64,000 nucleotides of DNA from Flaccisagitta enflata (taxonomy: Eukaryota): assembly GCA_965153355.1 (NCBI GenBank), contig OZ231126.1, forward strand, positions 15,190,001 through 15,254,000, in the 5' to 3' direction. The notes under the pieces are model-generated. The model saw nothing but the letters and a program-made list of their open reading frames with translations, made no database searches and had not been told where the DNA came from. A program made the position numbers and the translations under genes. Shown piece after piece: positions 50,754 through 64,000 of this stretch (its first letter is position 1; each line of letters starts with the position of its first letter).

Positions 50754-53700
50754 ATGGAGAATGTCGAGGCTGATGCGGGAAGAATCGGGATTGTTGGTAG
50801 GAAAAGAAAAATTGACTTGAGCATCATTCGCAGCTAGATAATGATTTCTTATCGCAAAGATGAGGCTGATAGCTAGATTTAGATTCAACCGTATCACCAT
50901 AAAAGGGTTTATACGTCTGTTGTTCAATTGTTCATCAGTCCGTTCATCCATTGGTCCAACCATCGAGGACGCTTGCTTTTAAACTGATAAAACGCGAGGA
51001 AAACGCTCTCTCGCTCTCTCTCGCGCTCTCGGTCTCGCTCTCTCGCGCTCTTGGTCTTACTCTCTCACTCTCAGTCTCGCTCTCTCTCGCGCTCTTGGTC
51101 TCGCTTTTTCGCGCTCTTGGTCTCGCTCGCGCTTGCTCGCTCGCCCTTGCTCGCTCGCCCTTGCTCGCTCGCGCTTTCGCTCTCTCGCGCTCGCTCTCTC
51201 TCTCTCTCTCTCTCTCTCTCTCTCTCTCTCTCTCTCTCTCTCTCTCTCTCTCTCGCTTACTCGCCCTGTGCCAGGAATCAAGCAAAAAACAGGCATTTGT
51301 TTGTCAAATTCTGGCTTCATTTTGAAACAACTCTCTCAGATCTGACAAGCTCAATATCCGAAGAGACACTCTCAGTGCAATCTTTTGGCGACTTTCCGGA
51401 ATTTGATGACTGCGCGTCGACGGCCACGACAGTTCCTGCCGTTAAATCATGGTACTCGGATATCGAAGAGGACAGCGGCAACATCCTTTGTACCCATCAT
51501 TACATCCCCGATGCTGACCCCGCGCCTTACGCCGAAAGTTTCGTCGACGAAGACGAGACGGACATTGCCCCGGAATCACACGTCGAAATCGCCGTCGATG
51601 GAAACGGGACAGAAGTTGCCTCGGAACCTCAAGTCGATGAACACGATACCGTAATCAGTCCTGCGCCTGACGCCGAAATCGCCGATGCAATTGAAAATTC
51701 AAACGACGAAGTTTCTACCACCAATCATGAGGAACGATCTTTCCTGGTATAACACAACTAGAAATCCGAGAGTGGTAAAGAATTGATAAAGAATTGTGTG
51801 GATGGGCAGGGACTGTGATATAGAAGGTATTGGGCAAAGCTGCAGGGGTTGTGACGCAGGATGCTTGCAACTCATGTCAGTGACAAGGGCGGATAAGCGG
51901 ATAAAAGACAACCATAGATTTATGGGCAGGGGCAGAGAGAGGGCAGAGAAGAGACTGAGCTGCCATTGTAGATCAAGGCAGTAATGTCTGTATTGCATAC
52001 AAGCACTAAATATTATGACGCCGCGTTGACACTAACCACAACTCATCAATATATTACAAGAAATGAACATAAAAGTGACACGCTCCTCTTTCTATACTTC
52101 CTTCGCTTTTCCTTAGTTGGAACGACCTCAAATTTTTCAGAAGACAAAACATTGCCGTAATTCGAAGGCTGTCTTATGCATCGCGGCGAGTGGATTTTTC
52201 TGGTATTCCAGAGGCCTTGAGGGCGTCAATGAAGCCACGTAAGTGAAGTCGAGTAAATATACTAAGTATGATGGATAATTGACAATTTCAACAACTGAGG
52301 CGGGATCACAATATCGTTGCGGACGGATGGGGAGGGGCATCCAAGCCTCAGCCTCAAATCAACCCCACCCCCAACCAGCGCCGCATGGGAGCCTATGATT
52401 TTGGGGGTGCCACCTCCAATTTGTGTCACAACAACTTCTTAGTGTCCCAATCATTCTAACTAGTGATTTTTTGCCTCTATATACAAAGACAACAATAATT
52501 CTTTGTGCATTTCAGTATAAGAATGCTTTGTCTCTCTCTCTCTCTCTTGTCATCTCGCTCTTGCTCTCTTTCTCTTTCGCTCTCTTTCTCTTTCGCTCTC
52601 TCTCTCTCTCTCTCTCTCTCTCTCTCTCTCTCTCTCTCTCTCTCTCTCTCTCTCTCTCTCTCTCTCTCTCTCTGAGTTATATGTCCCAACAAGGGGCCGT
52701 GCCATACACCCCTGCCCCCAACCACTCCTGCCACGTTCTCACCCACACACAATAACAACTGCAGTATCATAAATCCGCGTCTTTTGCGTTTTCAACTCGA
52801 GCGTGATGGACCGACCAACCTACGGACAAACCAATGGACAGAGGGACGGATGGATGAAGGGGTGGACGGAGCCTCTTATAGAGTTGTGTATTCGTCACTA
52901 AAAAGTTTGAAAGATTACTGGATTGATAAATGGAAGATACATATAGGTTGAACAGTACGATGGGAACAAAGACGATCTGGACTGGAGGACAGATTTTAGG
53001 TATTTTAATTTTTAGTCGCGGTCATGCGACTACATATTGCTATGTTGATCAGTCAGTCCGTTGGTTCATCATATTTCTGAATTCTGAGCGGTTTTTGCGG
53101 TACTGCTCTTGCCAAACCTGTCAAAATAATTCAATTTTTTTTTCAAAATCATGTGAAATTTTTTTTGCAATCTGAAAACATGAATATTGAAATATTGAAA
53201 AATAAAATCGAATTACAAAATAAAATTTTATGTGAGCAAATATATTCACTCAATAAAAAGATTTTTAATCTCATCTTTTTTATATATTACAGTGGAGCTT
53301 TACTAGAGCGCACCCGCTAACAAGGCATGCCCGCCTATAAGGCATACAACTTGCAGTCCCACCAGAGATTTTCAAGTTATTCTTCCATTGGCAATAAGGC
53401 AGCTTCACTATAGGGCATAATTTAGCCCAGTCCCTTGGAATGCGCTTTAGTGAAGCGTAACTGTAAGTAAAATTAAAAATCTAAAATCTCTCCTCCAGTC
53501 TAGGTCGTCTTTGCTCCCATCATACTGTAACTAGACAGCAACTTGGATAAATAATAAGAATGAAAAATAGAAAGCCAGATTTTAGAACAGTAGAAAGACA
53601 AATAGTTGCAGGAGCGTTAGGTGGTCAGCGGTACCCGTGCCCTGCCTAAGTAGGTTATGGTTAAAGTTGATGGGGGGCAGGGCAGCGGCCCCAAAGGGGT

Positions 53701-62700: not shown

Positions 62701-64000
62701 GCCTGAAATCTACCCTATCAGGCCTGATATCTACCCTATCAGGCCTGAAATCTGCCCTCTCAAGCCTTGAATCTGCATGAGAGGGCAGATTTAAGACCTG
62801 TGAGAAAGATTGCAGGCCTGAGAGCAGATTAAAAGCTTGAGAGGGCAGATTCAAGGCTAGAGAGGGCAGATTTTCCATCCTTAGAGGTTAGATTTCAGGC
62901 CTGGTAGGGCAGATTTCAGGCCTGATAGGGCAGATTTCAGGCCTGATAGGGCAGATTTCAAGCCTGAGAGGGCCTGAGGGGGATGGACAGACAAACGGAT
63001 GGATGGACGAACGGACAAAAAAAAGTCCCCCTATTCTACAGGACTTCGTCCTCTTTGGGGCCGCTGCCCAAAAGGGATTGAGCTTAATGAGCTAAATTAG
63101 CTGAAATACTGTAAAACATCATCTCAGATGAGTGGCTATGCTTATATATATGTTTTATTGTATTTGCATGCTTAGCTGGCTATTTACTCCTATATTGATC
63201 TTATTTAAAATATAAAAAAATAAAAAAAAATCAATCTGAATTTATAGTAAAAAGAATTTTTGAAGATCATAACTTGAAAAATAATTGTTGCAGATTATTC
63301 TGCATGGCGCCAATTAAAAAAAAATTGTCAATTTTATCTACCTTATCAGTTTTATTTGAAAGCTAAGTCATCCAAATAAGATCCTCAACTTTCAAATAAA
63401 AAATGAAAACCTTGTTTCTCTGGAATATGTCAAAAAGTCGAAGACTGACTTTGACTTTTTTTCCCGATTTCTGACTGACCGACAACAGAGAAAACAAAGC
63501 CGGACAGATTGACACAGTCAGTTATGGACTCTTATGTGCTTATGTGCTCTTGATTAAACAAAGATTTCCATTGTACGTGTATCAGCCATTCACGACCCCG
63601 ACGCGTGGATGAAGTACAGCATCGGCGAAGAGGCGCGGACTCGCGGTTCCATCATCGCCGAGATGGGTAAAATTGGGACTGGCGGGCCGGGAAAATCCGT
63701 CAAACATTTACCTATTGCGTCACTTCCGGTCAAAAACTCTGACCCTCTCATCACCAGCATTCCCCAGGACGTATTGCACATGCGTATGCGTTTGGCCGAT
63801 CGTCTAACGAAAGAAGCGATTGCCATATCAGCGAAATTTACCAGTGATAAACTGGCTAAAGGCTTCCAAACGCTCGCCCGAAATACGCAAGTCCCATTTA
63901 GCACTTATGAAGCTCCCGTCCACGGCAAGGTTGAAGTGAAACACAGTTCCATGACCGGAAGAAATTGGAAGCGTTTCCTGAGCAAGATTGGGCAAGAAAT
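50754..64000 (+). CDS. RAG1/Transib-superfamily DDE transposase-like protein, intron-containing; exons 50754-50796, 51340-51746, 52141-52238, 57318-57754, 58201-58625, 58912-59154, 59428-59542, 59920-60018, 63586->64000 (about 760 aa in window, continues past edge)
   Basis: All eight GT-AG introns are phase-compatible and the frame stays open. Motifs in RAG1 order: VYVKLAMDGT (D at 59035, like RAG1 D600); FIGGDMKNILMILGLSAANAAFPCIFC (D at 59922, Cys at +19 and +22, as in RAG1 D708/C727/C730); QDVLHMRMRL (like DALH, D792/H795); SMTGRNWKRFL (like MNGNFARKL). The first three exons are less certain than the core exons. Confidence 0.85.
52953..53527. mobile_element. MITE of the CAGTACGATGGG family with a nested small TA-flanked element (about 53290-53463)
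   Basis: TIR matches 44856 and 60942; nested TA|CAGTGGAGCTTTACTAGAGCG...GCGCTTTAGTGAAGCGTAACTG|TA. Confidence 0.75.
54285..54950. repeat. ~152-bp subterminal tandem repeat (4-5 units) inside the Transib-type element
   Basis: GGGCCC.AGGG.CCC.TAGA.ACC.TAAAA...GGTTTTTGAGGCTATTT recurs at about 54288, 54441, 54590, 54744 and 54897. Confidence 0.85.
55005..55340. mobile_element. Small Tc1/mariner-pogo-like MITE nested in the Transib-type element
   Basis: CCGTATTTCCTGCATTTATCGCCCC...GGGGCGCTAATTACAGGAAATACAG|TA. Confidence 0.65.
55620..56272. repeat. ~150-bp tandem repeat x4 separated by (CCT)n tracts
   Basis: CTTCAACAG.TC.ACAAGG at about 55676, 55815, 55973 and 56119. Confidence 0.88.
60942..61544. 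mobile_element. MITE of the CAGTACGATGGG family in intron 8 of the RAG1-like gene
   Basis: GGGAGCAAAGACGACCTAGACTGGAGGA...TCCTCCAGTCTTGGTCGTCTTTGCTCCC. Confidence 0.8.

Follow-up and report, generated by a model that had tools for sequence, protein, structure and literature searches.

A predicted intron-split gene with a RAG1-type transposase core in Flaccisagitta enflata

Introduction

RAG1, the enzyme behind the antibody diversity of vertebrates, is the textbook case of a transposase turned host recombinase, and to our knowledge its relatives outside the vertebrates are few and closely studied. Here we describe a predicted gene for a RAG1-like DDE transposase at the right-hand end of a 64,000-nucleotide stretch of DNA from Flaccisagitta enflata (contig OZ231126.1, positions 15,190,001 to 15,254,000 of the forward strand), to which an earlier note, made from the letters alone, had drawn attention as the site of a hidden RAG1/Transib-like recombinase gene. 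This whole stretch is called the window below, and positions are counted from its first letter. The biochemistry of RAG1, Transib and hAT enzymes is that of a dimer that nicks DNA and then either forms hairpins or carries out strand transfer at specific DNA ends.

Several groups of transposases lie in the neighborhood of RAG1. Chapaev and Chapaev3 are counted within a broad Transib superfamily by Kapitonov and Koonin, in the portion of PMC4411706 drawn on here, and the Chapa zinc-finger domain marks the Chapaevs according to excerpts of that work and of bioRxiv 10.64898/2026.01.24.700457. An excerpt of PMC12730594 describes C(2)C and H(3-4)H motifs as common across the CACTA/Mirage/Chapaev/Transib (CMCT) clade, and reports that an HHpred search with another lineage of that clade likewise returned RAG1.

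Results

Gene structure

Sequence comparison makes it highly probable, in our judgement, that the right-hand end of the window holds a real and intact gene of at least six exons, split by introns, that belongs to the protein family described below. The gene model is supported independently by homology to a hidden Markov model (HMM) of that family, by the composition of exons and introns, and by exon borders that are kept in relatives.

All six exons lie on the + strand. Exon 1 (57259-57754; CpG observed/expected ratio (o/e) 1.2-1.7) has an uncertain start, for which the ATG at 57259 is a guess (an in-frame stop precedes it at 57223), alternative acceptors lying at 57317 and 57327; its N-terminal 108 amino acids (aa) are unaligned, and a coiled-coil stretch corresponding to HMM positions 127-195 follows. 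Intron 1 (57755-58200, 446 nucleotides (nt), phase 1, GT..AG) has a weak donor (exon end TAG, intron start GTCTTA), and its junction is spanned by the HMM alignment. Exon 2 (58201-58625; HMM 196-312, E 3e-9) carries a basic stretch, GRKKLKDMGKGG, and then the start of the RAG1-like core, FPAASHVKAHEKEL; it is followed by intron 2 (58626-58911, 286 nt, phase 0, GTGAGT..AG), which contains a (CT)n tract at 58704-58882. Exon 3 (58912-59154; HMM 319-403, E 5e-6) would supply strands 1-3 of an RNase H-like fold with the first catalytic Asp, in KLAMDGT, and exon 4 (59428-59542; CpG o/e 1.0-1.3), likewise spanned by the HMM alignment, would supply the helix and strand before the second Asp; between them lies intron 3 (59155-59427, 273 nt, phase 0, GTAATT..AG). 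Beyond intron 4 (59543-59919, 377 nt, phase 1, GTGAGG..CAG), which contains (AG)n and similar arrays, exon 5 (59920-60018; HMM 420-467, E 9e-11) encodes GGDMK with the second catalytic Asp, and CxxC. Intron 5 (60019-63585, 3567 nt, phase 1, GTACGG..CAG) is filled with microsatellites, dispersed repeats and a repeat with inverted arms, and exon 6 (63586-64000; HMM 472-596), which encodes DVLH and MTGRNWKRFL and is 91% identical to the relative P0001, runs off the window edge. All five predicted introns are thus of the GT..AG type, in phases 1, 0, 0, 1 and 1.

Joined by coordinates, the six exons give a frame of 597 codons with no stop. Against the family HMM, the product of this frame yields one continuous domain that spans all five junctions (163.7 bits, E 1.2e-51, HMM 127-596). 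The donor of exon 3 at 59155 has the best HMM score, alternative donors giving 151.8 and 139.1 bits (12 and 25 lower). When all ORFs (open reading frames) of at least 12 aa in the six frames of the whole window were scanned with the HMM, which was built from 17 full-length members, only four of 3187 matched, all of them collinear and on the + strand (E 9.2e-11, 2.7e-9, 4.5e-6 and 1.6e-4; next best E 6.4).

The motif strings listed in the earlier note were all recovered from + strand ORF blocks between 58143 and 63998, in the order that it gave: GRKKLKDMGKGGAERTKASYRERL and FPAASHVKAHEKEL in the block 58143-58691, KLAMDGT in 58912-59190, GDMK followed by C at D+19 and D+22 in 59823-60029, and DVLH and MTGRNWKRFL in 63558-63998. 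The codon of the first catalytic D is at 59035-59037 and that of the second at 59922-59924; the zinc-site Cys codons start at 59979 and 59988, and within DVLH the D is at 63768 and the H at 63777. The same note had counted nine exons and about 760 aa; six exons with 597 codons are supported, and the three exons in 50754-57226 are not, as none of the six-frame ORFs there matches the family HMM.

Composition separates the exons (GC 0.492, CpG o/e 1.27) from the introns (0.394 and 0.44), and the former resemble two ORFs of the host gene upstream in the window (0.517 and 1.27); in a sliding window, CpG alone marks out the exons. Borders were compared with relatives that are exon-sized ORFs from public assemblies. 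The borders of exon 2 are common to P0164-P0167 (79-93% identical; four of six inspected), which extend to ..IHV, continue into the GTGAGT donor, translated as VS, and lose similarity from there on, and the acceptor of exon 6 is common to P0001, P0002, P0003, P0010 and P0012 (44-91% identical; five of seven inspected), in which read-through of the intron diverges.

At its 3' end the gene would continue past the window. P0001 runs 233 residues beyond the position of the edge, with HLFHLH..(20)..E and then a C-terminal tail, so that about 700 more bases of exon 6 are expected there, encoding HxxxxH, the catalytic Glu and a SAP-like tail; the Glu and the two zinc-binding His residues, which the earlier note had expected past the edge, are both present in this relative. 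The six exons together with the 233 residues of P0001 give a protein of about 830 aa, inside the family range of 729-863 aa.

Protein family

A search with P0001 of 1.84 billion cluster representatives found 175 proteins at E<=1e-3, some of which are full length (729-863 aa) and match at their C-terminal ends (for example P0043, E 1.2e-15, and P0046, E 6.2e-14); no homologue was found among longer proteins with exon 2 as query. Two of the ten clusters looked up had names: a sea cucumber protein ('hypothetical'/'CCHC-type domain-containing') and an abalone 'uncharacterized protein'. The family seems to be widespread and apparently unnamed. Full-text literature searches turned up no account of a family like RAG1 that has a coiled coil, a SAP-like tail or the partner gene described below; Repbase and RepeatMasker libraries or supplements may list it.

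The catalytic and metal-binding residues are strongly conserved. Across the 17 full-length members DG, D.K, C..C, LH, R and TPY.H....H are invariant, including the four putative zinc ligands C462, C465, H670 and H675, and the E and K are at least 90% conserved. Of the catalytic D, D, E triad, both Asp residues are in the window, and the Glu is in P0001 and at least 90% conserved both in the lineage of the window gene and in the family; of the zinc site, CxxC is in the window and the His pair is known through relatives, HxxxxH lying 20 residues before the E in P0001, P0003, P0006 and P0012. Members of the family also carry, beyond the core, a long coiled coil on the N-terminal side and, at the C-terminal end, a helix-extended-helix with weak matches to SAP, Ish1 and LEM, all under the Pfam cut-offs. 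A subgroup (P0058, P0119 and P0143, one of which is the sea cucumber protein) ends in a CCHC knuckle in place of the SAP-like tail.

Relation to RAG1

On sequence grounds, the link from the window to RAG1 goes through the wider family, without a direct match. When the 17-member profile was compared with PDB sequences, the top 16 rows were all RAG1 or RAG1L (3jbw_A at E 4.6e-9; BbRAG1L 6b40_A at 9.9e-6 over 280 positions), and coiled-coil noise began at row 17 (E>=0.018); HzTransib did not match the family sequence profile at E<=10. The profile alignments pair GgDmK..C..C with GyDEK..C..C of RAG1 and TPYmH....H..(20)..E with TnYLH....H..(20)..E, so that the spacings from D to the Cys residues and from His to Glu are identical to those of RAG1; the first of these, Cys at D+19 and D+22, had been claimed in the earlier note, and the RAG1 rows confirm it. 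The Pfam RAG1 models (PF12940, RAG1 Zn-domain) matched none of seven window exon ORFs nor P0001 or P0002, and PF12940 was reached by one of the 17 full-length members, at E 0.0063. In the ESM Atlas, a cluster of RAG1 fragments stood at rank 17 for P0001 (score 0.87), a lead only.

Structure prediction points the same way. An AlphaFold2 model of the family member P0046 (mean predicted local distance difference test score (pLDDT) 81.4) has its first Asp on strand 1 and its second just after strand 4 of a beta1-beta2-beta3-alpha-beta4 unit, the usual placement of these residues in RNase H-like enzymes. The AlphaFold and Foldseek comparison that the earlier note had proposed, done on this member, gave RAG1 as best, then BbRAGL, then HzTransib: among the PDB matches listed, ranks 1-44 were all RAG1 or BbRAGL (best 2.8e-13), HzTransib followed from rank 45 (6.8e-9), and the P element came at 6.5e-6. 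With VIA, RAG1 reached Z 26.4 (root-mean-square deviation (rmsd) 3.6 A, 417 aligned), residues 284-738 of the model corresponding to mouse RAG1 460-1007, followed by BbRAGL at Z 22.8 and HzTransib at 20.9 (383 aligned). Identity as a hAT, P-element or IS-like transposase was ruled out by lower Z (P element 14.3, Hermes 11.0, ISCth4 10.3). The model thus has a predicted RAG1-type DDE transposase core with a Cys2-His2 zinc site, and after RAG1 we name what we take to be the equivalents of its core parts DDBD, pre-RNase H, RNase H, ZnC2/ZnH2 and C-terminal domain. The basic stretch of exon 2, which the earlier note had read as a nonamer-binding region, falls outside this equivalence: 49 of the 50 VIA rows start near RAG1 residues 450-480, after that stretch, and the one row that enters the region (6cil_A, to residue 428) does so at rmsd 8.3.

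Related loci and a partner gene

Related loci were found in metagenome contigs by means of a degenerate DNA pattern that covers the motifs of the His pair and the Glu, and all 48 pattern-matched contigs match the family HMM; a pattern derived from P0001 gave 93 matches, none of them confirmed. The transposase is an intact, intronless, full-length ORF in 14 of the 48 loci, is broken into 2-6 overlapping frame pieces in 19, and is partial in the remaining 15 (six cut off by a contig end, nine internal). In other animals and in metagenomes, then, the family has the habits of a mobile element, with many copies, no introns and frequent decay. Inverted repeats or target duplications were sought around 18 transposase ORFs in these loci, and none was convincing; at the four repeat-unit borders L003:250, L003:4165, L013:2777 and L009:5021, each defined by one copy pair, there was no inverted repeat, no CA..TG and no duplication. 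At one locus the flank holds a Las1-like eukaryotic gene (L040:3858-5288, - strand, E 1.3e-47); at another (L008:1818-2863, - strand) it holds a piece that resembles Crypton, with matches to DUF3504, integrase and QRICH1. Because of these two flanks we take the metagenome contigs to be eukaryotic host DNA.

A second, conserved ORF of about 135 aa, here called ORF2, lies beside the transposase in 24 of the 48 loci, either downstream and convergent, 130-855 bases off (17 loci), or directly upstream on the same strand (7 loci). Examples are L003:3379-3804 (-), L009:4032-4457 (-), L013:2141-2623 (-), L034:818-1270 (+) and L047:810-1316 (+), with 19 further loci. Upstream copies on the same strand occur in L030 (ORF2 at 2586-2843, transposase at 2853-5060) and also in L021, L015, L024, L025, L031 and L036; in L030 the ORF2-like sequence is in the same frame as the transposase, 9 bases apart from it. 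In loci of this type ORF2 may be spliced or fused to the transposase, which, if so, would argue that the two proteins cooperate.

The ORF2 model is of very high confidence (pLDDT 92.8); it has no Pfam, PDB-sequence or Foldseek match (E<=1e-3), its best VIA Z among 48,161 chains is 4.1, and its best ESM Atlas score, 0.85, is a lead only. Judging by this model, ORF2 may be an accessory subunit of new fold. No kelch or RAG2 domain was found in the nine largest other flanking ORFs of the related loci. The window itself ends before the expected place of a RAG2-like gene, and related loci (24 of 48) carry ORF2 instead of one; the window contains no ORF2 homologue (best E 0.64), and one at this locus, if convergent, would lie past the edge.

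Host maintenance or mobility

The window gene belongs to a lineage of its own within the family. In a tree of the C-terminal region, the window exon and 13 fragment relatives form one clade (Shimodaira-Hasegawa-like approximate likelihood ratio test (SH-aLRT) 100) against 28 intronless rows; the tree is unrooted, the fragments are drawn from the 27 best-scoring P0001 hits, and L025 and L030 are omitted (their C-termini are identical to P0046 and P0113). Among the 13 sequences of this lineage H204, H209, E226/E229 and N232 are at least 90% conserved, as is the Lys that follows, and the position of the last intron is kept in clade members down to 44% identity. Since the last intron is shared over this distance and the His and Glu residues are conserved, the introns are old and the catalytic site has been retained.

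The introns hold old repeats. Microsatellites lie at 58704-58882 ((CT)n), 59622-59670 ((AG)n) and 60048-60199 ((GA)n/(AC)n), and dispersed repeats have further copies in the window to which they are 72-93% identical, that is, from which they are 7-28% diverged. Intron 5 contains a repeat with inverted arms (62560-63073, arms 83% alike) that is built of 21-bp units, with an array of these in two inverted blocks (62670-62973), and has a second copy 12 kb upstream (50002-50279); it looks like a miniature inverted-repeat transposable element (MITE) or a foldback element. The presence of these microsatellites and dispersed repeats upholds the remark in the earlier note that the frame has stayed intact while its introns carry old repeats: all 597 codons are open. 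That 1793 coding bases are free of stops and frameshifts beside introns with repeats 7-28% diverged favors selection at the locus, and a host-maintained (domesticated or domesticating) gene derived from a transposase is, on this sequence evidence, its most likely status, to which we would give an even chance.

The strongest competing account is that the gene is the transposase of a large, intron-bearing DNA transposon that is still mobile, its intactness reflecting recent transposition and not selection. Intact as well as decayed copies occur in the wider family, which is multi-copy, and the catalytic residues are conserved across the lineage. Two further observations speak for this account and weigh against host maintenance. 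The relatives are many and graded in identity (44-93%), and could be paralogues of a multi-copy element; and three of the 13 lineage fragments inspected (P0010, P0168 and P0169) deviate or end early, like decayed copies. The introns do not settle the matter, since DNA transposons keep their introns and carry them along, so that introns shared among relatives are compatible with mobility. However, such a unit would exceed 7.4 kb in the gene alone, and the repeat-unit borders of related loci (one copy pair per border) showed neither inverted-repeat ends nor duplicated target sites. Moreover, the repeats of the 3.6-kb intron are 7-28% diverged, and a neutral copy of that age should show decay in its coding sequence, where there is none; CpG has been retained in the exons and lost in the introns. 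We think continued mobility rather improbable, and retain host maintenance as the preferred reading.

Placement among described transposases

The family is like RAG1 and BbRAG1L (ProtoRAG, 6B40) in several respects: these give the best profile and fold match, over core residues 460-1007, and share the D..LH motif, the distance from the second D to CxxC (+19/+22 in the window) and that from HxxxxH to E (+20). The partner gene, convergent and downstream in many related loci, recalls the arrangement of RAG1 and RAG2. Unlike RAG1, with which structural identity is 14-17%, the family appears to lack an N-terminal zinc finger/RING and has a coiled coil and a SAP-like tail instead, and whereas RAGL transposons have a kelch RAG2-like gene, the partner that accompanies the family in related loci is 135 aa long and of unknown fold. 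Transib (HzTransib, 6PQN/6PQX) resembles the family in its core fold, in apparently having no N-terminal zinc finger, and in that the family elsewhere is a single-exon mobile element; in contrast to Transib, the family is about 300 aa longer, with its coiled-coil and SAP-like parts, and HzTransib ranks below RAG1 by fold. Neither CAC-type ends nor a 5-bp duplication, as in Transib, was seen at the repeat-unit borders of related loci (one copy pair per border).

The earlier note had assigned the gene to the RAG1/Transib superfamily, and in fold and active site this holds; as a family assignment it is too narrow. The D, D, CxxC, HxxxxH and E motifs are clade-wide and so are without power to single out RAG1/Transib. 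Furthermore, no CACTA, Mirage or Chapaev protein was among the solved-structure matches from Foldseek or VIA, so that a first-place match to RAG1 can neither put the family inside Transib proper nor tell a Transib-like protein from another of the CMCT clade. Because the motifs are clade-wide, the Pfam RAG1 models reach so few members and nearly all RAG1 alignments begin after the putative nonamer-binding stretch, we treat the family as a lineage of its own in the CMCT clade, neither Transib nor RAGL, whose nearest characterized relatives are RAG1/RAG1L and then Transib.

A related possibility is that the family is a divergent member of one of the named CMCT lineages (Chapaev, Chapaev3, Mirage, EnSpm, ESTA, Lanisha or Plavaka), RAG1 coming first as the best-represented solved structure. 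Besides the Pfam result, the clade-wide C(2)C and H(3-4)H and the return of RAG1 by HHpred for other lineages, in the excerpt of PMC12730594, are what such a relationship would lead one to see, and with Chapaev and the clade the family has in common a distant relation to the RAG1 core (PMC4411706, in the portion used here) and the occurrence of two-gene elements. But conserved N-terminal Cys/His columns of the Chapa type were absent from alignments of 17 or of 25 members, and the N-terminal region of P0046 is modelled as strands, helices and coiled coil. Without conserved Cys/His columns before the core, membership in Chapaev is unlikely; the family, which has no Chapa counterpart, is set apart from Chapaev by published descriptions of that domain. 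No EnSpm-type family was among the 25 of 69 Pfam families listed for the 17 members (E<=10), a plain HMM, and not just a profile-profile method, reaches RAG1 at 4.6e-9, and the D-to-Cys and His-to-Glu spacings are exactly those of RAG1. We accordingly regard a place within a named lineage as unlikely, and keep to a separate lineage within the CMCT clade.

Surrounding sequence

Directly upstream of exon 1 lies a dispersed repeat (57147-57226). Farther upstream, a CpG-rich region on the + strand (50600-51752; CpG o/e 1.1-1.8) contains a (CT)n/CTCG-type array (51004-51254) and an acidic ORF without a Met (51300-51746) of exon-like composition (GC 0.499, CpG o/e 1.5), which gave noise only against Pfam; the region may hold a candidate promoter or 5' exons of this gene or of another. 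Tandem arrays occupy 54380-54948 (units of 153/307 bp) and 55637-56272 (146-158/304 bp, interleaved with (CCT)n), and ORFs on both strands of 35878-38337 read as ..HVSSCLFMS.. repeats, probably a large minisatellite. A host gene with G-patch and RRM domains (10525-11499 and 14062-14496, + strand; Pfam E 2.3e-11 and 1.6e-6) and another with a ZU5 domain (16263-16652, + strand; Pfam E 4e-4) show the window to be normal animal chromosomal DNA.

Discussion

We hypothesize that the window gene encodes a DDE transposase-type nuclease of about 830 aa, with its 3' end about 0.7 kb past the edge, that would consist of an N-terminal region containing a long coiled coil, a core of RAG1 type, a CxxC/HxxxxH zinc site and a SAP-like tail. 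By homology, the protein would act as a DNA-binding dimer that cuts by means of a D-D-E site with two metal ions, and like RAG1, Transib and hAT enzymes it would nick specific DNA ends and then form hairpins or transfer strands there. Judging from its domains, the coiled coil would aid the pairing of the protein, and the SAP-like tail would bind DNA or chromatin. The introns would have been gained in the window lineage before its members diverged to 44% identity, and since then the exons would have kept both their frame and their CpG, while repeats, by now old, accumulated in the introns.

Several points count against this picture. A 13-sequence profile of the window lineage found no RAG1 match in the PDB; neither did Pfam and PDB sequence searches with single exons, nor Pfam searches with P0001 and P0002; the protein that was modelled, P0046, is only 27-32% identical to the window protein; and the 3' third of the gene, where the Glu and the His pair are encoded, is outside the window and is known from a 91% identical relative that is possibly a paralogue. 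Weighing these against the gene model, the fold and the state of the exons, we consider the explanation as a whole reasonably probable. That the locus is a dead or dying relic, its 3' part outside the window or its 5' part broken so that no functional protein is made, is highly unlikely: about a quarter of the coding sequence does lie past the window, the predicted 5' end has weak points (the donor at 57755 and the 108 aa of exon 1 that do not align to the family) and some relatives look degenerate, but 597 codons are open over five introns, conservation tracks the family profile, the exons resemble host exons in composition, and the closest relatives hold a complete 3' exon of 371-388 aa.

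A further proposal, which we put forward tentatively and think somewhat improbable as it stands, is that in a lineage of marine invertebrates a transposase with the RAG1 fold was domesticated independently, giving a conserved, intron-rich and possibly multi-paralogue family of host recombinase genes with a complete catalytic and zinc site. Their source would be an undescribed two-gene transposon lineage beside RAG1/Transib, in which the transposase has a 135-aa partner of new fold, convergent with it as RAG2 is with RAG1.

Whatever its status, the family adds a widespread, unannotated branch that combines the RAG1 core fold and zinc-site geometry with other outer domains and another small partner gene, and so offers a wider comparison set for the evolution of the RAG1 core and its possible partners. 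If it is merely another lineage of mobile elements, it still fills a gap, both named members being 'hypothetical' or 'uncharacterized'. Most of the interest lies in the question of domestication: if the gene is maintained by its host, it would be a candidate for a second, independent recruitment of a RAG1-type enzyme in an animal.

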